Origin: a virus
Taxonomy: Duplodnaviria; Heunggongvirae; Uroviricota; Caudoviricetes
DNA: 64,000 bases
Virus record (IMG/VR): IMGVR_UViG_3300048590_001376
Reading direction: 5' to 3' (one strand)
Shown here one piece after another: positions 36,472-53,577 of this stretch; within the stretch, counting starts at the first letter, position 1, and each line of letters begins with the position of its first letter. A program made the position numbers and the translations under genes. The notes below the pieces were generated by a model, which saw only the letters and a program-made list of their open reading frames with translations, ran no database searches and was not told the DNA's origin.

Positions 36472-37011
36472 CTAAATGGTTGATGCTTTTGGTCGCCGCC
36501 CTATCTTTCCTCGTGACACTGCGACGATTGAATAGTCAATTACGTCTGGAAAGTTTAGTTTCGCAAATTCTCCAGCCAACTCTCTGGCTGCTTGGTCGTA
36601 GGCCAGTGCCGCAACCTCTTCGCTTACGAATGTCCCTAGGTGCTTGCGAACTTTATTGAACGTGATATGTGACACCCAGCAGTTATTTTGCGAATGTCTT
36701 CGCACTCCCTTGAATCGCGAACTCGTTCCAAGAACCGGCCCGCGATTGTGCTGATTTTGTGGCTGTGTAGCTAATCGAAGATTGTGGCGCTGATTATCAA
36801 GTCCATTGCGGTTGCGATGATCCACGAGGCAGTCTGGCTCACCCATGATCATGCGGTGCATGTAAACCCTGCGGCCTTTTCGTCCGACTTGCATTTGGGC
36901 GTAGGATGTCTTGTTGCGAACCGCAAGTCGCCAGGGAAGGCTGGCAAGCCAATCGTAATCAGCATCATCAACAAGCACTTCATGGCCAGATGGCAAGCGT
37001 ATGATTTTCAT
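36472..37011 (-). CDS. HNH homing endonuclease with an AP2 DNA-binding domain.
   Basis: HNH core (HRMIMGEPDCLVDHRNRNGLDNQRHNLR) plus an AP2 domain (SSRFKGVRRHSQNNCWVSHITF...EEVAALAYDQAARELAGEFAKLNF). ATGA-coupled to the thyX-like gene. Confidence 0.6.
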   Translation of the reverse strand: MKIIRLPSGHEVLVDDADYDWLASLPWRLAVRNKTSYAQMQVGRKGRRVYMHRMIMGEPDCLVDHRNRNGLDNQRHNLRLATQPQNQHNRGPVLGTSSRFKGVRRHSQNNCWVSHITFNKVRKHLGTFVSEEVAALAYDQAARELAGEFAKLNFPDVIDYSIVAVSRGKIGRRPKASTI

Positions 37012-38414
37012 TTCACGAACTCTGCCACTTGTCCGATGCCGTCCGGTGAGTCGATTAACCGGATGTCCTGAAATGAGTCTGCATACCTGCTTTTTTGCAA
37101 CTCACGAACCACCTGGACATAGACTTCCCGTATCTCTGCATCGGCGTGCCGGGAGCATCGCTGTTGAACCATCCTGCGCCACTGACTGACGGACGCGGAG
37201 AAGATCATTTCGGTTTGCAGTGCGTTGCCGAGATAGCCGCGTGCCGCGCCGCGGGCTTGCTTGCGGGCGGAAGTCTTGTCGACCTTGCGGTCGATCAGAT
37301 ACGCCTCAAGCTCGTGAACGGTCAGACGGTAAGTGTTCTGTGCCGACTTCATCGTTTCATCCGCACAGCTCGGGATAGCTGTGTCTTCGGCATGCACATC
37401 GTTGATGTATGCCGTGATCAGTGGATGCTCGACCCACGGCGAACCATCTTCATCCACATACCGCGTACTCCGCTGGCTGATCGCGGTGAAGTCGCCATGT
37501 CGGACTTGCTCGTGTGAGAAGCCGCGGCTGCCGGAGAGGTAGAGGGAGATCCACTTTTCGTGGTCAGTTTCAGGCGGCATGATCATCGCCGAAGTCGACG
37601 ACGATTGCTCCGGTCGCTTAATGATGTGTGGCGCAACTTGATGGCCAAGCTCAGCGAGAAGACGACCAAGATCATTGTGAGCATCAATTCGATACTCGTC
37701 GTCAAGGTTACCGAACTCGTCGGCGAAGGATTGCCATTCGAGTATCGCGCGAAGATTGACGGTTATTCTGAAATCGGCATTGTGCCAGTGGCTGTGGAAG
37801 ATAATGCCGGGACGATTAATCAGCAGATAGGCAGCGTAATCGGCATCGAAGCCCTGAACGCCGATCGTGAAATTGAAATGCTCCAACACGCTGCCGTGGC
37901 CAACGGCGAGGATGTGGTCGTGGTAGCCCTCAACTCTGCTGCATGACACGCCGGCTTTTTGTGCGAAATGGGCGGCGACATCGCTCCATTTCCTGAACTT
38001 GCCTGCCTTCATTGCGAACTCGATCAGCGACAGATTGTCGCCGTTTGCTGCGTCGTGATAGCGGCCATCCTTTATGTTCACAAATGCCGATGGATTGGAA
38101 TCTGCTCGACCGAACGCATGGCACGTCATGCAGCCATTGTGCTCGACGCCAACAAACTGCACCCCCAGCTCCCGATACTCGGCAATCACGTCTAGTTTCG
38201 ATGCGATCTCCGCGCTATTGAACTCTCCTGATCGGCTAAAGCTCGGCCTGCCCTTGCCCAGAGAGTCGTAACATACTCGCCCTGCCAACTCGCTCAGCCG
38301 CTCAGCCGCCGTCCCCTGCATTTGATCGCTGCGCGGCACGCCCATCTCTGGCGGAATTCGCACTTCGTCGCCGCCGTCCCAAACAAGGCGGGCTTTCAGT
38401 AGATCGTTGGACAT
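37008..38414 (-). CDS. thyX: ThyX-like flavin-dependent thymidylate synthase, unusually long with an N-terminal extension and an internal insertion.
   Basis: Motifs GHGSVLEHFNFT, SRGFSHEQVRHGDFTAISQRSTRYVD (RHR motif present as RHG; S-x-R-Y present), and ARGAARGYLGNALQTEMIFSASVSQWRRMV. The 468 aa length compares with about 220-250 for typical ThyX. Confidence 0.55.
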   Translation of the reverse strand: MSNDLLKARLVWDGGDEVRIPPEMGVPRSDQMQGTAAERLSELAGRVCYDSLGKGRPSFSRSGEFNSAEIASKLDVIAEYRELGVQFVGVEHNGCMTCHAFGRADSNPSAFVNIKDGRYHDAANGDNLSLIEFAMKAGKFRKWSDVAAHFAQKAGVSCSRVEGYHDHILAVGHGSVLEHFNFTIGVQGFDADYAAYLLINRPGIIFHSHWHNADFRITVNLRAILEWQSFADEFGNLDDEYRIDAHNDLGRLLAELGHQVAPHIIKRPEQSSSTSAMIMPPETDHEKWISLYLSGSRGFSHEQVRHGDFTAISQRSTRYVDEDGSPWVEHPLITAYINDVHAEDTAIPSCADETMKSAQNTYRLTVHELEAYLIDRKVDKTSARKQARGAARGYLGNALQTEMIFSASVSQWRRMVQQRCSRHADAEIREVYVQVVRELQKSRYADSFQDIRLIDSPDGIGQVAEFVK

Positions 38415-38754
38415 GAGGGTGCTCCTAGAGTTTCAGGAAAGAGGAAAGGGGTTAAGGGTCAGGCCGCCGCCTGTTTCCGCCGGGCGAACTTCACTTGGTT
38501 GCGATAGATGCGATCACACTGCTCGTTCGCCTTGTCGGCCGAGCCGTATGGCCCGATGACACCGACTTTCATCGACTTGTCGAGCACGATCGCCAGCGGC
38601 GGCAAGGCCCAGTTCGTGCGATCGATCCAGACTTCTTTGCTCCGGCCGTCGAAGCAAACCCACCAGCGCGAGCAGAACAGCGCGAAGCCTGTTCGCTGAA
38701 TGGCCAGGCCGATCTGGATTCCGATGACGACGGCGATGAGGGCGATGAGGATGT

Positions 38755-39201
38755 TCATTGAGTCGACTGTGCTTTCAGGTAGTGCTCGTACTCCGGCCGC
38801 TCCGGGATGTCGATCAGGTGCGGCATTTTTTCCTCGAAGTGGCACAGCGTCATCAGGTTCCAAATCGCATGACCCAGATCGTCCTCTTCCGTCTTCCCTT
38901 CCAGATAGCTGGCGATATGCTCCAGCGCGTGGTTGATCAACACGCTGGCGGGCATGCCCTTTTTCCAGTTGTGCGGCGGGTACTTCACGGCCCCTTCCGC
39001 ACAGGCATTGCCGACGCGACGCAGGCCGACAGGGCTGATCAGATCGAGGCGAGCCTTGGGGCTGCTGCCGCGAACGGCTCCGGTGTCGAACTTCGTGACG
39101 GCTTGGTCGTCCATGATTTCCTCGAACCCTCCGTGATAGATGCCGCCGCACGGCCCGCGAACAGGAATGGCCATGAACGTGCGAATGTTGCTGTCAGCCA
39201 T
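38755..39201 (-). CDS. dATP/dGTP pyrophosphohydrolase N-terminal-type domain protein (MazZ-like).
   Basis: GAVKYPPHNWKKGMPASVLINHALEHIASYLEG...DDLGHAIWNLMTLCHFEE resembles a phage dNTP diphosphohydrolase domain. Start at the internal ATG at 39199-39201; the Arg/Ser-rich N-terminal extension in the ORF track is rejected. Confidence 0.5.
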   Translation of the reverse strand: MADSNIRTFMAIPVRGPCGGIYHGGFEEIMDDQAVTKFDTGAVRGSSPKARLDLISPVGLRRVGNACAEGAVKYPPHNWKKGMPASVLINHALEHIASYLEGKTEEDDLGHAIWNLMTLCHFEEKMPHLIDIPERPEYEHYLKAQSTQ

Positions 39202-41234: not shown

Positions 41235-41759
41235 TCATCTTCGCTTCGCCTTTTTCCTTCGCTTGGCGGCCAGCAACTTCGGCAAGTCCTCTTCGGACAC
41301 AATGTAGCCCCGGCAGTTATACGAGCCACAGTGACATTTCGGGAACTCCCCTTGAAACGGCCAGCCGTAGTCGTAGCACAATTCCTGCCCGGTAGCGATG
41401 AAGCACAGAGCGCGCAACTCCCAACAGTGTGGGATGTTGGGATTGGTGTTCTGGATGCAGTTCGGCGAGCAGGAGTGGTTGACCAGGCCCCCCGGCATGT
41501 AGGGCTCCAGGATCATGCGATGATCGTCCAGTTCCATGCAGTAATGCGAGCCATAGGGCGATCGCTTGGTGTCTGGAATCAGCCGGCCGTAGATTCGCAT
41601 GACCAGCTCGTCCGGGAGAAAATCGCGCAGGGCGATCACAGAACGGCCAGCGTTGGGCGTGGTGATGATTTCAAAATTCGAGTAGAGATAGTCGTCCGTG
41701 CCGCGGCCATCGGGGTCGGTGAAGCGCGCGCGGGGGTTATTCTTCTTCGTCTTCGCCAT
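41235..41759 (-). CDS. SET-domain protein lysine methyltransferase with a post-SET Cys cluster.
   Basis: GGLVNHSCSPNC...ELCYDYGW...CHCGSYNCRGYI matches the SET plus post-SET signature. Start at the ATG at 41757-41759; the ORF-track start at 41789 is a TTG codon. Confidence 0.65.
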   Translation of the reverse strand: MAKTKKNNPRARFTDPDGRGTDDYLYSNFEIITTPNAGRSVIALRDFLPDELVMRIYGRLIPDTKRSPYGSHYCMELDDHRMILEPYMPGGLVNHSCSPNCIQNTNPNIPHCWELRALCFIATGQELCYDYGWPFQGEFPKCHCGSYNCRGYIVSEEDLPKLLAAKRRKKAKRR

Positions 41760-42879
41760 CGTTTTCGTCTTCTGTTTCGTCGGGGTCAAAGTACAGGAAC
41801 ACCGGGTCGCCCGTTTCCGGGCAGAGAGCCCAGAAATTGTGCGTGTCGGTCGGCACGGTCATTTCGCGAATCGGAATGTAACCATGGGCGCCGCCGCAGC
41901 GATCGCAGCAAGGGATCGATGAATAGGGTTGCTCTTCGGCCTTTTTCGGGTCGGCCTGGATGACGCGCATGGCGCAGAGCGAATCGAACACGCCGCGGCC
42001 GTCGATGATCGTGCGGTCCTGCTCGGTCCCTTGGTCCAGCGCGCAGGCAAAGGCATCGCGTTGAATGCGATCTTTGAAAACGAGCACGGCATAGAAGCCT
42101 GGATCGTCGCGGTCCCCGGTGGAAGAGACTTGCTTCTGGGTGCGGTCGGTCGCCTCGCGGATTCTCTCGGCCAAGTCCTCTAAGTCAGGCGCGCGATCCT
42201 CGAATCCTTCGTCGCCAAAGAGGCGGTAGTATTCGCCCAGGTCAAAGCCCGCTTCCTCGATGCCGATCTTGTCATCGGCGAAGAGAGATTTCAGTTTGTC
42301 TTGATCGTACTCGCCTTGCATGAGCGCGTTGGAAAGTGCGGTCATGGTTTCCAGGTGAGTTTTTTCGTCCATGTCGACCACGGCGACGTGCAGCCGGTAG
42401 TTGGTCCCCTTGTGGTGCGAATCCATGATCGAGAGACGCTGGTGGCCGCCGACGAGATAGCCGTTGCGTTTGTTCCAGACGATCGGCTCGATCAGGCCGA
42501 CGCGCTTGATCGTCGATTGGAGCTTCTTGCGGGCCTTGGACGTGATGGTTTTCGGGTTTTTCGGGTGCGGCTTGAGATCGCGCCGGTGCTTGACCTCGAA
42601 CGTGAATTTCTCCAGCTCGGTCAGCGCGGCGGGCGCAGTGTCTTTAGCGCGCGAGGACTTCGCGGCGGCTGGAGAGGGTGTTTCAGAGGGAGAGGGGTCG
42701 CCGGCGGCTTCTGCGGGCTCGGCCTGTGGGCTGCCTGTGTGATCGTCGTGTGATGGCTGTGGGGCTTCTGCGGGCTCCCCGGTGCCAACGACTGGCTCTC
42801 CGGCCTCACTGGGCGGCTGAGGCGGCTGCTGCTTCGCCTTGCGGGGCTTCCTGGCCTTCGTCTCGTCAGTTAGTTCCAT
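41737..42879 (-). CDS. ParB-like nuclease domain (ParB/Srx fold) protein, IbrB-like.
   Basis: IEPIVWNKRNGYLVGGHQRLSIMD resembles the ParBc motif. Has an acidic low-complexity N-terminus and an acidic C-terminus. Confidence 0.5.
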   Translation of the reverse strand: MELTDETKARKPRKAKQQPPQPPSEAGEPVVGTGEPAEAPQPSHDDHTGSPQAEPAEAAGDPSPSETPSPAAAKSSRAKDTAPAALTELEKFTFEVKHRRDLKPHPKNPKTITSKARKKLQSTIKRVGLIEPIVWNKRNGYLVGGHQRLSIMDSHHKGTNYRLHVAVVDMDEKTHLETMTALSNALMQGEYDQDKLKSLFADDKIGIEEAGFDLGEYYRLFGDEGFEDRAPDLEDLAERIREATDRTQKQVSSTGDRDDPGFYAVLVFKDRIQRDAFACALDQGTEQDRTIIDGRGVFDSLCAMRVIQADPKKAEEQPYSSIPCCDRCGGAHGYIPIREMTVPTDTHNFWALCPETGDPVFLYFDPDETEDENDGEDEEE

Positions 42880-43445
42880 GTTCTGCCTCTGATTACGTTG
42901 GCGATCGTTGCAGCACTGACACCAAACTCACGGCCGAGCATTGCGTAACTCATGTCGCCAACGGCATATTTGCGGCGAATCTCACTCGCCTTAGCTGTGG
43001 TCAGAATGGCGCTGCCGTTTAGTTCGCCCTTGTTGTGTCGAGTCTGAGTGTTATGCCTGATTCGATCTCGATAATTCTCCATTGGCGTGCCCCACTTGAT
43101 TTCGCTTAACCGATTGTCGGACTTATCGCCATCCTTATGACGACACTCCTGACCCGGCGGACACGGACCAACGAATGCTTCGAGAATAAGGCGATGAACC
43201 AAACAAAGTATTTTCTTGCCATCGCGACACAGGCTGACTCGGTAGTACCCGCCTGATGTTTTAATTGGACGAAGCTGATGCCACGTATCACTTAAATAAG
43301 ATTCGCAGCCACCACCTTTTTTGCCCCTGACTTTCCGGCAGCTCCAAACAGAGCCATCATCGCCTGCCCTATAGCCAGGGAACCGCTTAATCGGCCTGTA
43401 CTGGACGGGCACGGTCTTTTGCTGCTGCATGCGTTCCAATTCCAT
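42870..43445 (-). CDS. HNH homing endonuclease (NUMOD4 plus HNH_3).
   Basis: RPIKRFPGYRAGDDGSVWS (NUMOD4-like) and CRHKDGDKSDNRLSEIKWGT (HNH). Start taken at the internal ATG at 43443-43445 to avoid overlapping the PAPS-reductase-like gene. Inserted between the ParB-like and PAPS-reductase-like genes. Confidence 0.55.
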   Translation of the reverse strand: MELERMQQQKTVPVQYRPIKRFPGYRAGDDGSVWSCRKVRGKKGGGCESYLSDTWHQLRPIKTSGGYYRVSLCRDGKKILCLVHRLILEAFVGPCPPGQECRHKDGDKSDNRLSEIKWGTPMENYRDRIRHNTQTRHNKGELNGSAILTTAKASEIRRKYAVGDMSYAMLGREFGVSAATIANVIRGRTWN

Positions 43446-44106
43446 ACCAATCACGACGCTTAACAATTGCTTCAACGAATGGATAGACAAGCCGGATTTT
43501 CTCGTAATCCTCCGGGAAGGAATCATATAGCCACAGTACGCTCGAAACCGTCAACCCCAGACCGCCAGAAGTTGCCCCGTCCGACGATGGGACGGGGATT
43601 TTCTTGGATTGCAAATAGGCGAGAACGTGCCACTTGTTCCATTTCTCGATCGGATAGATGCGTTCCTGGTGAGACTTCGAGAGCGCTTTCATCGTCCGGC
43701 GACGCCAGAGCGAATCGGACATCTTGCCACCATGGGCCACGATCGAGCATTTGGCGTCAGAGAGGGCCAGCCGCTCGATGTCATGGACATTCAGGTCGGG
43801 CATCGAGGCGAACGCGGGGTCCGGGAAGCGGTAGGTGCCGTGCTTGAGGCATTGCAGCATGCCCCAGTGCGGATACTGGCGGATGTCGATTTTCCATCGC
43901 TGGCGAGCGTACTCCAGGCGTTCTTCGACGTGGGCCAGGCCCGGCACGAAAAACATGTGAAACGCTTCAACGCGCGCGAAGAGAGAGCAGCACAGGTCCA
44001 TCACGCACAGCGAATCCTTGCCGCCGGAGTAGCTGACGAGGATCGAGTCGTGCTCTTTGGCGAGACGGACCAGACGCTTAATGGTCTGGTCGAATACGAC
44101 AGCCAT
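43387..44106 (-). CDS. PAPS reductase / PP-loop ATP pyrophosphatase family protein (IbrA-like).
   Basis: ILVSYSGGKDSLCVMDL contains the PP-loop SGGKDS. Start at the ATG at 44104-44106. Confidence 0.6.
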   Translation of the reverse strand: MAVVFDQTIKRLVRLAKEHDSILVSYSGGKDSLCVMDLCCSLFARVEAFHMFFVPGLAHVEERLEYARQRWKIDIRQYPHWGMLQCLKHGTYRFPDPAFASMPDLNVHDIERLALSDAKCSIVAHGGKMSDSLWRRRTMKALSKSHQERIYPIEKWNKWHVLAYLQSKKIPVPSSDGATSGGLGLTVSSVLWLYDSFPEDYEKIRLVYPFVEAIVKRRDWYGIGTHAAAKDRARPVQAD

Positions 44107-44208
44107 CGGTGAAGCCCCGAACGCGCACAAAAAAAGAGCAGCCAGGATCGCATGAGTTAGATGCGATCCTGGCGAAACAGTCGAGTTGAAGAGACGGACG
44201 CGAGAGGC

Positions 44209-49055: not shown

Positions 49056-49700
49056 TTATTCCACAATCTTAAGATGTCCTTCACGAACGCCGCGACTTAC
49101 TAAGTCGTCAAAATAGTCCGTCCCACCAACCACAACCACCGCGTTGCAGTTGAAGCACGACAGTTTCTCGATCGGACTGTTGCGGTAGCCGCGCTCATCG
49201 GCGAGCGCGGCTTGCATGATCCACGGCGTCCAGCTCCGCAGAACCGGCGTCGTGATATGCTCACTCCGCAAGAAATTCCAAAACGCCTGCTCGGTTAGGT
49301 CCGGGATCAGGCGTTTGTCTTTGGCGATGGCCAACATGTGCCATTGCCCTTCGGAGACGTAGTGCTTGTAGATGCGATAGCCGTTGTCATAGGGCTGGTA
49401 GTAGCCGTAGTAGATCGGGTCGCATCCAGTGAATCGCACCTGACCCACCTTGCTGTGCAGTAGGGCCGCCATCGCCTTGACGGACGTGGACGGCCCAACG
49501 GCTGACAGGATGGCCAGGTGCTCGCTGCGGTAGCCAGTCTTATCGATGGCCGCCGCGGCACAGCGAAGCGTGAAGTCCGAGCCCTTGGCGACCGTCTGGA
49601 CTGTTCCCAGCTTGCGTGGTGCCACTGCCGGCTCGCTACTCTTCGCTGTCGCTTCCCTGCTCATGGTCGTTTTCCTCGCTAGATTGCTCATCGGCTTCAT
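49056..49700 (-). CDS. Hypothetical protein.
   Basis: 214-aa ORF. Its start overlaps the methyltransferase gene end by about 65 nt, so the start is uncertain. Confidence 0.4.
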   Translation of the reverse strand: MKPMSNLARKTTMSREATAKSSEPAVAPRKLGTVQTVAKGSDFTLRCAAAAIDKTGYRSEHLAILSAVGPSTSVKAMAALLHSKVGQVRFTGCDPIYYGYYQPYDNGYRIYKHYVSEGQWHMLAIAKDKRLIPDLTEQAFWNFLRSEHITTPVLRSWTPWIMQAALADERGYRNSPIEKLSCFNCNAVVVVGGTDYFDDLVSRGVREGHLKIVE

Positions 49701-50697
49701 CCTGGAAGGTCATAATGTTGCCAAGGTGATCCAGGGCGCGAACCACCAGACTGATTTTTTCCGAATACACTTGGGTCGTTTGCACGGCCCCGTCCTCTTT
49801 TTCCTCTTCATCGCGGGACACCAGATAGGTGATCTTTTTGGCGGTCCCGCGAACAACGTGTGGCGGCTCGTCTGGCGGCGACACGATGCCATCCAGGTGC
49901 CCAGCGGTAAGCAATAGGGCTCGATGCCCCTTGCCTAACGACATGGGCGGCCGAGCGATGCCGCGATCGACTTGCGGTTGCAAGTGCTGATTGAGCGGCG
50001 AACGATCGACCATTTCCCAGGCTTCTTCGTCGGTCAGCATCGACTTGCGGAAGGTCGTGGGGCCTGGAGTCGCCGGAATGGCGTACAGTCCAGGGGAATC
50101 GCTCGCCTCAGTCGACCACTTGCGAAGCCATGAGGCTTCTGCTTTTTCGCGCTTCACGCCAAAGATGACCACTTCCTTGTACTGCCGGTGAGCAGCCAGG
50201 TAGGGCATCCAGGCGATCTGCCTGTATCGCCCCAGAAGCGTGTCGCAGATGTCCGATCGAGTCATCACGTCGGCCGGACAGGCGAGGCACATCACCCCGC
50301 CTGGCGCCAGTAGATCGGTGCAGCGGCGAAGGAATTGACCCTCGACGCGAACACCCCCGCCCAGCTCAAAGTCATAAGGCGGGTTGCACCAGATGAACCC
50401 GAACCGGCTGTGCGGGCTGACTGACACCGAGTTGAAGTCGGAGTAAAGAACCGTCGCCCCTTCGAGCAAGGCGGCGGCCTCGCGCGATCGGGTGCGGTCC
50501 AACTCCACGGCATAGACCATCTCCGGCGGAACATGCAAGGCGTCGGCGAACTGCTTGGCGGCAGCACCAGCGCCACAGCATGGGTCCAGGAAAGCAAAAC
50601 GGCCGCCAGTTGGCGGCCGAAGATGCTTGACGATGGAAGCGACGACTGGGGGCGGAACCGGGAAAAAACCACCGCGCTTTTGGCCTTCGAGCCTCAT
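49636..50697 (-). CDS. N6-adenine DNA methyltransferase-like protein.
   Basis: Motif I FLDPCCGAG, motif IV WCNPPYD (NPPY), and an acidic C-terminal tail. Confidence 0.55.
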   Translation of the reverse strand: MRLEGQKRGGFFPVPPPVVASIVKHLRPPTGGRFAFLDPCCGAGAAAKQFADALHVPPEMVYAVELDRTRSREAAALLEGATVLYSDFNSVSVSPHSRFGFIWCNPPYDFELGGGVRVEGQFLRRCTDLLAPGGVMCLACPADVMTRSDICDTLLGRYRQIAWMPYLAAHRQYKEVVIFGVKREKAEASWLRKWSTEASDSPGLYAIPATPGPTTFRKSMLTDEEAWEMVDRSPLNQHLQPQVDRGIARPPMSLGKGHRALLLTAGHLDGIVSPPDEPPHVVRGTAKKITYLVSRDEEEKEDGAVQTTQVYSEKISLVVRALDHLGNIMTFQDEADEQSSEENDHEQGSDSEE

Positions 50698-52286: not shown

Positions 52287-52516
52287 GTCAATCTCCGAAT
52301 TTGAATCAGTTCCAGTTCATGGTCCCATAGCCACTGGTCCTGGCCCTGGTAGCCCGGCGGATTGCGGCCATGCACGATGACGTTTTCCAAGTCGACTTCG
52401 CGAACCAGCGTCGCGCGTCGCCCCTGGCGGTCGGGCAGCTTGTTACGCACGACGCGGCCGATGAAGCCGGTGGTTTCGTGACGCACAAGCTGCCCACGGC
52501 GTAGTGCTCGGATCAT
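52283..52516 (-). CDS. Hypothetical small protein.
   Basis: 77 aa with a 4-nt overlap on both sides. Confidence 0.4.
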   Translation of the reverse strand: MIRALRRGQLVRHETTGFIGRVVRNKLPDRQGRRATLVREVDLENVIVHGRNPPGYQGQDQWLWDHELELIQIRRLT

Positions 52517-53577
52517 TTGCGGCCTTTGCCTTTCGGTTGGAGCAGTGCCGCGGCGGCCTCGGCCTGGTTGTCGACTGCCACGGCATGCGGGGTCATGCCA
52601 TCGGTATCCTTGATCTGCTTGGCTCCGTGCTCCAGCAGCAGTTGGATGTTGTCGACGGCGTTGAAGTAGGCGGCGTAATGCAACGCGGTCCAGGGGTCAT
52701 CTTCGGCCCGTAGATTCACGTCTGCGTCGGCGTTGAGCAGTTCGCTCAAGATCAGCAGATGCTCCGGCTTCTTGTAGCAGCACACCTTGCAGATGGCCTG
52801 GAAGCCTTCGTGCTCGCAGTTGGGCGACAATCCACGAGCGAGCAAATCCTGAACGCGGTTCACGTCGCCGCGGTGAATGGCGGCAAACAGGGCCTTCGGA
52901 GTCGGCGTATCGTCGCGCGGCTTGCGAGGCGCGTTACTTCGCTTTCCTGACGACTTGAATTCGCTCGACTGGATGCCGGTGCCATTGGCCCACGAGGCAA
53001 CGGCGTCGCGAATCGTGTTGCCTGCATCCTCTTCCGGCACGAGCGTTGACAGGGCGCCAACGATTGCAGTGTCGCCATGCGGCAGCACAAAGCCGAGCGT
53101 GCCCCGCGAGATGCCGATACCATTGTCTGGCTGGATGTCGAGCAGCAGGGCAATTTCTGGCAGCTCGGCTTGCTTGGCATATTCGAGCAGCTTGCCGAGC
53201 GTTTCCGTCGAGAGGACTGTCACGGAGTTGTAAGTGACGGACTCGATGACCTTAGCGACCGGCGGGAGCTTGCCGGGGTCTTTTAGGGCGATCACTTTTT
53301 CGAGAGCCAGCGATTTAGTTGCTCGCTTTGCCGTCAATTGCTCCAGGTGGCAAGCCTCGAAAACCTTGTCGGGCTCATTGGCTGCATTGTCAACCGACAC
53401 GGCGATCGCGATCCGGCTATCGGTGGCCAGTAGTCGCTGGCTCTTGCTGTCGAACATCGCGACGTGCAGTGCGTATCGCCCTGGTTCGCCGCAGATCGGG
53501 GCTACGTTGTGAATGCGGGTTAGGGTTGGCATGGTTGATTGCTCCAAAAGAAAACCGCCGGGCGCGACTGATGCCAC
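52513..53577 (-). CDS. Ankyrin-repeat protein with an unassigned N-terminal domain.
   Basis: C-terminal ankyrin repeats (DPWTALHYAAYFNAVDNIQLLLEHGA; GDVNRVQDLLARGLSPN). Confidence 0.5.
   Translation of the reverse strand: MASVAPGGFLLEQSTMPTLTRIHNVAPICGEPGRYALHVAMFDSKSQRLLATDSRIAIAVSVDNAANEPDKVFEACHLEQLTAKRATKSLALEKVIALKDPGKLPPVAKVIESVTYNSVTVLSTETLGKLLEYAKQAELPEIALLLDIQPDNGIGISRGTLGFVLPHGDTAIVGALSTLVPEEDAGNTIRDAVASWANGTGIQSSEFKSSGKRSNAPRKPRDDTPTPKALFAAIHRGDVNRVQDLLARGLSPNCEHEGFQAICKVCCYKKPEHLLILSELLNADADVNLRAEDDPWTALHYAAYFNAVDNIQLLLEHGAKQIKDTDGMTPHAVAVDNQAEAAAALLQPKGKGRK

Follow-up and report, generated by a model that had tools for sequence, protein, structure and literature searches.

ThyX, the flavin-dependent thymidylate synthase (FDTS), forms an established family of enzymes that is also a target for antibiotics. 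Its canonical members, such as those of Mycobacterium tuberculosis (2AF6/3GWC) and Thermotoga maritima (TM0449), have ~220-260 amino acids (aa) and carry an RHR triad; longer forms of 294-372 aa are encoded by the crAss-like phages cr127_1 and cr128_1, the Brevibacillus phage Jenst and the Gordonia phage Skog, and we found no biochemical characterization of the crAss-like, Jenst or Skog proteins in the literature. Here we describe a 468-aa ThyX homolog encoded on 64,000 nucleotides of the tailed-phage record IMGVR_UViG_3300048590_001376; this whole stretch (the window) corresponds to positions 75860-139859 of the 174,324-bp contig Ga0498930_0000262. The protein shares with canonical ThyX both the fold and the order of the motifs (CY.S, H.S..EH, SR..HE..RH, SQ.S.RY, R..AR and R...H.D.EIR), but it contains two inserts of ~100 aa, has RHG for RHR with one extra residue before SQ, and is 25-32% identical to canonical enzymes in the core. 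The first insert (insert 1) is an intact ~100-aa primase-head module, which matches the full profile of its family and is unique to the ThyX of one phage lineage, while the second (insert 2) is common to a large clade of phage ThyX proteins.

Among predicted viral structures the best matches to the window protein are the long phage ThyX proteins named above, which align with it over 293-357 columns at 16-24% identity. The crAss-like protein has in common with it the first half of insert 2, a hairpin with the pattern '..T.N.R..E', but it keeps RHR and does not have the helical second half, whereas the window protein has RHG and both halves. The primase-domain insert was not seen in the long phage ThyX matches, of which the Jenst and Skog proteins were not inspected. 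Insert 1 shares its fold with the zinc-binding domain of DnaG primases (1D0Q, 2AU3, PF01807). That domain has a second CxxC knuckle, in place of which the family of insert 1 has Y-x-D...G-[DE], and it begins primases, whereas insert 1 sits inside a nucleotide-synthesis enzyme. For the coupling of deoxyribonucleoside triphosphate (dNTP) synthesis to replication, the closest described system is the T4 dNTP synthetase complex of Mathews and co-workers, a non-covalent assembly that reportedly involves the ThyA-type td and gp32. The logic shared with the window phage would be that thymidylate synthesis is brought near the fork, the T4 complex being non-covalent and the proposed link here being a primase domain covalently inserted in a ThyX-type enzyme.

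By sequence and by fold, the gene product is almost certainly a genuine ThyX homolog. The Pfam Thy1 family (PF02511) matches the 468-aa protein with 95.9 bits (cut-off 24.8, E = 3.5e-27), and phmmer against solved chains recovered ThyX proteins only (M. tuberculosis 3gwc, 5.5e-18; C. glutamicum, ~5e-18). An AlphaFold2 model based on 80 homologs has a mean predicted local distance difference test score (pLDDT) of 86.9, with values above 90 in the core, and the top 50 matches in a Foldseek search of the PDB were all ThyX, the best being M. tuberculosis 2af6/3gwc (E = 1.5e-13, target-normalized TM score 0.65). The original prediction, made from the sequence alone, had called the gene ThyX on its hallmark motifs, had given its length as 468 aa and had proposed the comparison of a structural model with ThyX structures. 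The length agrees with the open reading frame (ORF), and the motifs, which the Thy1 score and the alignment to M. tuberculosis ThyX show not to be spurious, all stand where they were placed: AGRVCYDS at aa 44-51, CMTCH at aa 95-99, GHGSVLEH at aa 172-179, SRGFSHEQVRHGDFTAISQRSTRY at aa 296-319 (with RHG at aa 305-307) and ARGAARGYLGNALQTEM at aa 387-403.

A JGI gene call with the name ThyX has exactly the same sequence as the protein, which occurs on 11 contigs (the longest 174 kb), all of which match the window DNA at 100% identity. Because genes annotated as tape measure protein, major capsid protein, prohead protease and portal all lie within the window, the source is a large tailed phage; no DNA nearly identical to the window was found among cultured phages.

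The alignment to M. tuberculosis ThyX (phmmer) breaks into three collinear pieces, pairing query residues 32-59, 163-190 and 289-459 with residues 29-54, 64-91 and 78-238 of the mycobacterial enzyme. The extra length therefore resides in two internal insertions and not in an N-terminal extension. An extension of ~170 aa with a CMTCH motif had been predicted; the CMTCH is there, but aa 1-58 (LVWDGGDEVRIP...AERLSELAGRVCYDSLGKGRPS) are conserved ThyX sequence, kept in every relative examined, and the extra residues form an internal insert at aa ~59-162. Insert 2, at aa ~191-287, aligns in its first half with a crAss-like phage ThyX, and a Pfam scan of insert 2 by itself gave no match.

Relatives of insert 1 were sought exhaustively with HMMER among 1.84 billion representatives; this returned 442 at E ≤ 1e-3 and 116 at E ≤ 1e-10, with 31-52% identity. 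The domain starts within the first 60 residues in 147 of the 150 best relatives (median carrier 714 aa). Sampled carriers hold DUF5906, AAA_25 or Toprim_2, and those scanned against PHROG match DNA primase or primase/helicase families; compared with these N-terminal positions, that of the query domain (aa 66-162, internal to ThyX) is atypical. No ThyX is found among the 150 best carriers, and the domain is absent from the other 119 best ThyX relatives, in which the corresponding loop has 10-44 aa. When modeled separately with 20 relatives, insert 1 reaches a pLDDT of 83.5 and matches the DnaG primase zinc-binding-domain fold rather than any other. Against a family hidden Markov model (HMM) built without the query it scores 123.6 bits, compared with a median of 123.25 for 100 genuine members that had been held out, and all 9 invariant and 14 nearly invariant positions in the alignment of 20 family sequences are preserved in it. 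Since this score is typical of the family and yet the closest sampled relative is at most 52% identical, insert 1 either came recently from an unsampled donor or has been retained by selection.

The match of insert 1 to the curated Pfam family Zn_ribbon_DnaG (PF01807) is marginal, at 14.6 bits against a gathering threshold of 24.9 (E = 0.029), and runs collinearly from position 17 to position 94 of the 98-position profile, which at E ≤ 1 is matched by just 3 of 20 family members. The second CxxC zinc knuckle is missing from insert 1 (YHDAANGDN) and from all 31 relatives aligned, and Y-x-D...G-[DE] stands in its place in every family member aligned. Only one Cys is nearly invariant in the family, which thus has an incomplete version of the Cys-His-Cys-Cys ligand set. 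Because this holds for all aligned members, we regard the family as a sister of the curated CHC2 family and not as part of it. A profile search of the sequences of solved chains with insert 1 gave one chance match only, and no second copy of insert 1 was found within the window. A word-indexed protein search came back blank for insert 1 even though P0001 contains an exact copy, and this blank reflects a limit of the index and not absence. Two large predicted proteins, P0125 (2239 aa) and P0179 (1403 aa), show partial primase-head matches (query positions 43-97) in 6 and 8 stretches, respectively. P0125 also shows scattered unrelated Pfam matches, and both may be repetitive or chimeric predictions.

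The remainder of the protein belongs to a distinct 'long' ThyX clade, whose known members all come, to date, from phage-like contigs of metagenomes, the largest of them 544 kb. For the 120 best database relatives the scores are 322 bits or more, with 43-61% identity (best local alignment), and most have 346-428 aa. The spacing from EH to SRG, which contains insert 2, is 103-144 aa in 94 of the 94 homologs where it could be measured, compared with ~11 aa in canonical ThyX (counted from the M. tuberculosis sequence), and among the 120 best homologs RH is followed by G in 92, by K in 18 and by R in 7. This uniform spacing and the alternation of G, K and R make insert 2 and RHG traits of the clade and not lesions of the query gene. 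Both an insertion of ~105 aa before SRGF and the RHG had been pointed out earlier as oddities of this gene; each is present (the insertion at ~100 aa), and neither is peculiar to it. The contigs of those clade members that were looked up are phage-like and 28-544 kb long; ThyX lies there in neighborhoods of replication and nucleotide-metabolism genes, near helicase, methyltransferase and polymerase genes, and in two of them directly downstream of thymidylate kinase. The cultured-phage collection has no clade member, as its 182 matches are all below 60% identity with none covering 80% of the query (24-32% identity among the matches listed). The clade (~350-420 aa, a ~100-aa extra sub-domain, RH-G/K/R) is thus large and without a cultured or characterized member. 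It also has a bearing on how the enzyme retains its cofactor, given that these proteins can dispense with the second Arg of the RHR triad, which contacts flavin adenine dinucleotide (FAD).

On balance, and with some confidence, we favor the reading that a long-clade ThyX, likely a synthase of deoxythymidine monophosphate (dTMP), acquired a primase-head module, and that the locus serves ordinary thymidylate supply with selfish elements nearby. The variable surface loop after the CYDS motif would have acquired the complete ~100-aa module in one phage lineage. Insert 1 would then dock the ThyX oligomer onto a partner of the primase head (single-stranded template, Toprim domain or helicase), and docking would place or concentrate dTMP synthesis at the replication fork. 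Under the same reading the DUF5664 pyrophosphohydrolase encoded nearby could supply deoxyuridine monophosphate (dUMP) from dUTP, the MazG-like protein would be a house-cleaning pyrophosphohydrolase, and the HNH-AP2 gene would be a mobile gene of the homing-endonuclease type that has settled at the 3' end of a conserved one. The specific proposal that insert 1 tethers ThyX to a replisome component or to single-stranded DNA, drawn by analogy with the T4 dNTP synthetase complex, we advance tentatively, as one that could well prove wrong.

Several observations weigh against this account. Insert 1 is known from a single clonal population, whose contigs, at 100% DNA identity, offer no variation from which selection on it could be gauged. 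Its placement on the ThyX core is of low confidence (pLDDT 42-72 in the full-length model), and the primase-head domain is one without a complete zinc-ligand set. The second Arg of RHR, an FAD contact, is Gly in the query, so that cofactor binding could be altered. Finally, thyX is a hot spot for selfish elements, with inteins of homologs inserting only ~10 residues away and an endonuclease gene downstream, which makes a neutral accident plausible. What is new is the domain architecture, with a primase head inside ThyX, within a widespread and uncharacterized clade. A docking module, if this is what insert 1 is, would couple de novo thymidylate synthesis to a replisome by a covalently built-in connection, the first of its kind, and would be a natural experiment on replication-coupled dNTP channeling; if insert 1 still binds primase partners, it would give a handle on the old unresolved idea that dNTP synthesis is coupled to the fork.

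The alternative that survives best holds that insert 1 is a functionless passenger, a primase fragment captured in frame in a permissive loop, with ThyX working despite it. We consider this possible, though not the probable outcome; the capture could, for example, have accompanied the mending of a cut left by an intein or a free-standing endonuclease. The loop after CYDS is tolerant of inserts: it ranges from 10 to 44 aa elsewhere, and in one relative it holds an unrelated mini-insert with four Cys. In keeping with passive capture, insert 1 occurs, among the 120 best homologs, in a single clonal lineage, its GC content at third codon positions (GC3) is 0.625, under the genome mean of 0.745, inteins of homologs interrupt GHG|S or come just ahead of the Cys of CYDS, and the HNH-AP2 gene abuts the 3' end of ThyX. 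Other features do not fit a random fragment: insert 1 coincides with domain boundaries, all 9 invariant and 14 nearly invariant family positions are kept, no convincing repeats or scars were found at the junctions flanking insert 1, and a family-median score at no more than 52% identity calls for an unsampled source or for selection. The mini-insert (ECCPISLQIGPIHSPDCRVCGG), found in the same loop of P0010 (L047:8001-9221), is short and resembles a minimal zinc ribbon.

Inteins occur in three ThyX homologs (P0103, L019:6762-8969 and L024:3548-6577), either just before the Cys of CYDS (query C48), ~10 residues upstream of the position of insert 1, or inside GHG|S (query G174/S175). They show C...GN|C or GN|S junctions, and two of the three (L019 and L024) match Pfam LAGLIDADG_3. 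Mycobacteriophage ThyX genes are known as intein hosts (PMC5050341), and homologs in the present clade likewise carry LAGLIDADG inteins, but insert 1 itself is not an intein. Its candidacy as an intein or intein remnant was rejected, as its boundaries (...GRPSF|SRSG... and ...SRVEG|YHDH) do not have the Cys/Ser...His-Asn|Cys arrangement and its fold is that of a primase head.

The free-standing endonuclease gene downstream of ThyX begins with an ATG that overlaps the ThyX TGA as ATGA (gtgaaATGAaaatc, read directly), just as the original prediction described. The predicted protein has matches to PHROG 99 'HNH endonuclease' (2.8e-36) and, with scores slightly under the Pfam cut-offs, to AP2 (2e-07; 31.6 vs. 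33.3 bits) and HNH_3 (6e-05; 23.0 vs. 24.8 bits). Its GC3 is 0.49, compared with 0.745 ± 0.044 for the genome. We surveyed the neighborhoods of 35 related ThyX loci (8 kb around ThyX) with single-sequence phmmer, a search of limited sensitivity, and found an HNH-AP2 homolog in none of the 35. With this sporadic presence and foreign composition the gene looks like a mobile, homing-type, free-standing endonuclease gene. It shares both properties with other phage homing endonucleases, but is a separate gene, encoded neither in an intron nor in an intein. The suggested analogy to T4 td with I-TevI is for this reason inexact, I-TevI being intron-encoded. At least three more HNH genes (HNH_3, one with NUMOD4) occur at window positions 42870-43526 (-), at ~55.3-56.0 kb (L012:15670-16326) and at L001:1-106.

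The phage also has primase-type genes of its own, ~31 kb from ThyX. A 348-aa protein has an N-terminal domain that scores 126.9 bits against the family HMM and is 48% identical to insert 1 (E = 5e-27); the protein aligns along its whole length, at 45% identity, with one that bears Toprim_2, and itself has no Pfam or PHROG match. Two genes downstream, past a 66-aa ORF, lies a 612-aa helicase-like Walker-A gene, and the replication genes of this phage look split between the two (window-equivalent ~67.2-70.4 kb). A recent duplication of the phage's own primase head was considered as the source of insert 1 and rejected: insert 1 is no closer to the phage's own copy (47-48% identity) than to domains of unrelated phages (52% at best), and the two do not pair in a neighbor-joining tree. 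In the closest relative phage (ThyX P0003, 56-58% identity), only 2.5 kb separate ThyX from the orthologous head-plus-Toprim gene downstream, and a similar former adjacency of ThyX and primase could have eased the capture of the domain. In that phage, ThyX is at L046:8001-9167, and the head-plus-Toprim gene with a D5_N/DUF5906 helicase is at L046:11660-14918.

With regard to catalysis, the assignment of residue roles (the dUMP and FAD contacts and the His53 equivalent) follows general background on the family alongside a published account. Residues were mapped through the phmmer alignment to M. tuberculosis ThyX, with roles from PMC6514825. All columns that are invariant across 80 clade members are also kept in the query, among them S296, R297, H301, E302, R305, H306, S313, Q314, R315, S316 and R318, and likewise R388, R392 and R419; H173, the His53 equivalent, is present in the query and nearly invariant (≥90%) among the 80. 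The dUMP-binding residues Q75, E86, S88, R90, R147 and R174 of T. maritima have their equivalents in E302, Q314, S316, R318, R392 and R419, and the full set of counterparts of dUMP- and FAD-contacting residues of the T. maritima and M. tuberculosis enzymes adds H173, R305 and H306 to these. Within the RHR triad, whose hydrogen bonds go to the phosphate and ribityl groups of FAD, it is the first Arg that is in contact with the isoalloxazine ring (PMC6514825), and the second Arg alone varies in the long clade. The strict motif RHR(X7-8)S with both arginines is replaced in the query by R305-H306-G307...S316-x-R318. Owing to this departure, the protein is filed as a divergent member of the Thy1 family and not as a proven canonical FDTS. 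On these residues, it most likely converts dUMP to dTMP with FAD and methylene-tetrahydrofolate and is predicted to be an ordinary dTMP synthase.

A second alternative would have the protein no longer act as a thymidylate synthase, and instead either assist the replisome as an accessory factor that binds nucleotides or DNA, or act on another substrate. The Gly in place of the FAD-contacting second Arg, the identity of only ~25-32% to the closest solved or characterized enzymes and the lack of a clade member in the cultured-phage collection would be in line with this. It is nevertheless improbable, in that G, K and R alternate among clear orthologs while the other catalytic and substrate positions are invariant in 80 sequences, the Arg, Ser and Gln that bind uracil and phosphate are kept, and thymidylate kinase is adjacent in some relatives.

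Two predicted pyrophosphohydrolase genes lie on either side of ThyX, as originally noted, and both are borne out by Pfam and PHROG matches. The MazG-like protein shows a weak match to the solved chain 2q73. The DUF5664 protein matches PHROG 18716 (1.8e-25) and 801 (1.1e-14) and has no significant match among solved chains; it had been called 'MazZ-like', a label of which the DUF5664 domain stands, while a solved-chain match and DUF550 are both wanting. A stand-alone DUF5664 protein of Arthrobacter phage Wayne converts dATP, dUTP and dGTP to monophosphates, Z-genome phages use DUF5664 domains as hydrolases of dATP and dGTP, and DUF5664-related proteins occur in phages with canonical DNA as well (PMC12884076). 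Since stand-alone DUF5664 hydrolyzes dUTP and occurs with canonical DNA, the simplest reading of the gene is that it may supply ThyX with dUMP from dUTP. Of the 35 related loci, 3 have MazG and 2 have DUF5664 in the 8 kb around ThyX and, judged from gene neighborhoods, the MazG-ThyX-DUF5664 trio is not a conserved module; most loci of the long clade do not have it. An adjacent trio was seen in two dissimilar viral contigs (L038:7452-9141 and L043:2529-6373). Both have short ThyX types, the ThyX frame being ~260 aa in L038 and the open frame ~600 aa in L043.

Gene content was scanned over ~72 kb, by our own ORF scans and by precomputed Pfam annotations covering window positions 27-64 kb and 7.6 kb beyond, with ~102 kb of the contig outside the scan. 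Within these ~72 kb there is no match to PurZ/PurZ0 (Adenylsucc_synt), in agreement with the earlier remark that no PurZ-like gene was seen, and DatZ (HD), DUF550 and a ThyA-type hydroxymethylase were likewise not seen, DUF5664 being present only in its stand-alone form; a search of the rest of the phage genome for PurZ, DatZ and hydroxymethylase genes had been suggested, and of this the 7.6 kb beyond the window has been covered, with none seen. The locus gives no support to an exotic DNA base. That ThyX, MazG and DUF5664 form a pool-remodeling module for a non-canonical base (Z-genome or modified pyrimidine), as the original prediction tentatively suggested, is highly improbable and weakly refuted: DUF5664 domains do hydrolyze dATP and dGTP in Z-genome phages (PMC12884076), two pyrophosphohydrolase genes flank ThyX, the trio recurs in two unrelated phage contigs, and PAPS-reductase-like and methyltransferase genes are nearby, but the dUMP residues are conserved, thymidylate kinase stands beside relatives, MazG and DUF5664 seldom accompany related ThyX genes, none of the marker genes named above was found in the scanned part of the 174,324-bp contig, and DUF5664 also occurs with canonical DNA, where dUTP hydrolysis would feed ThyX (PMC12884076). 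A search for modified bases is not worth the effort on present evidence.

Table 1. Features of the ThyX locus and of the primase-type genes of the same phage. Coordinates are window positions unless a contig is named.
Feature	Position	Strand	Evidence
MazG-like nucleotide pyrophosphohydrolase, 142 aa	35341..35769	-	Pfam MazG 1.4e-07, PHROG 229 5.8e-40
Free-standing HNH-AP2 endonuclease gene, 179 aa	36472..37011	-	PHROG 99, Pfam AP2 and HNH_3
ThyX (flavin-dependent thymidylate synthase homolog), 468 aa	37008..38414	-	Pfam Thy1, phmmer, AlphaFold2 model, Foldseek
ThyX motif segment SRGFSHEQVRHGDFTAISQRSTRY; RH-G replaces RH-R, Ser316 and Arg318 kept	37458..37529	-	Alignment to M. tuberculosis ThyX
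Insert 2, aa ~191-287, beta-hairpin and helices between strands FNFTIGV and WISLYLSG	37554..37844	-	pLDDT >90
Insert 1, aa ~59-162, ~104 aa, holds CMTCH; DnaG-primase zinc-binding-domain-like, incomplete zinc ligands	37929..38240	-	
Conserved ThyX N-terminal segment, aa 1-58 (strand, helix AERLSELAGRVCYDS, GKGRPS)	38241..38414	-	Kept clade-wide; pLDDT 85-98
99-aa ORF between the DUF5664 gene and ThyX	38459..38758	-	JGI gene call; no Pfam/PHROG match
DUF5664 (PF18909, dGTP_diPhyd_N) protein, 148 aa, probable dNTP pyrophosphohydrolase	38755..39201	-	Pfam 5.8e-17; JGI call
348-aa primase-head and Toprim-like protein	L012:1241-2287, window-equivalent ~69362-70408, 5.4 kb past window end		Family HMM
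612-aa helicase-like protein, Walker A	L012:2562-4400		Matches only the C-terminal half of the 968-position 'DNA primase' PHROG

A promoter and terminator scan of the ThyX region gave no signal above shuffled expectation. Elsewhere in the window, genes for a SET-domain protein (41235-41789), a PAPS-reductase-like protein (43387-44130), a DUF6094 methyltransferase (49636-50697) and an ankyrin-repeat protein (52513-53577) are all on the (-) strand, and the genome is rich in free-standing endonucleases.

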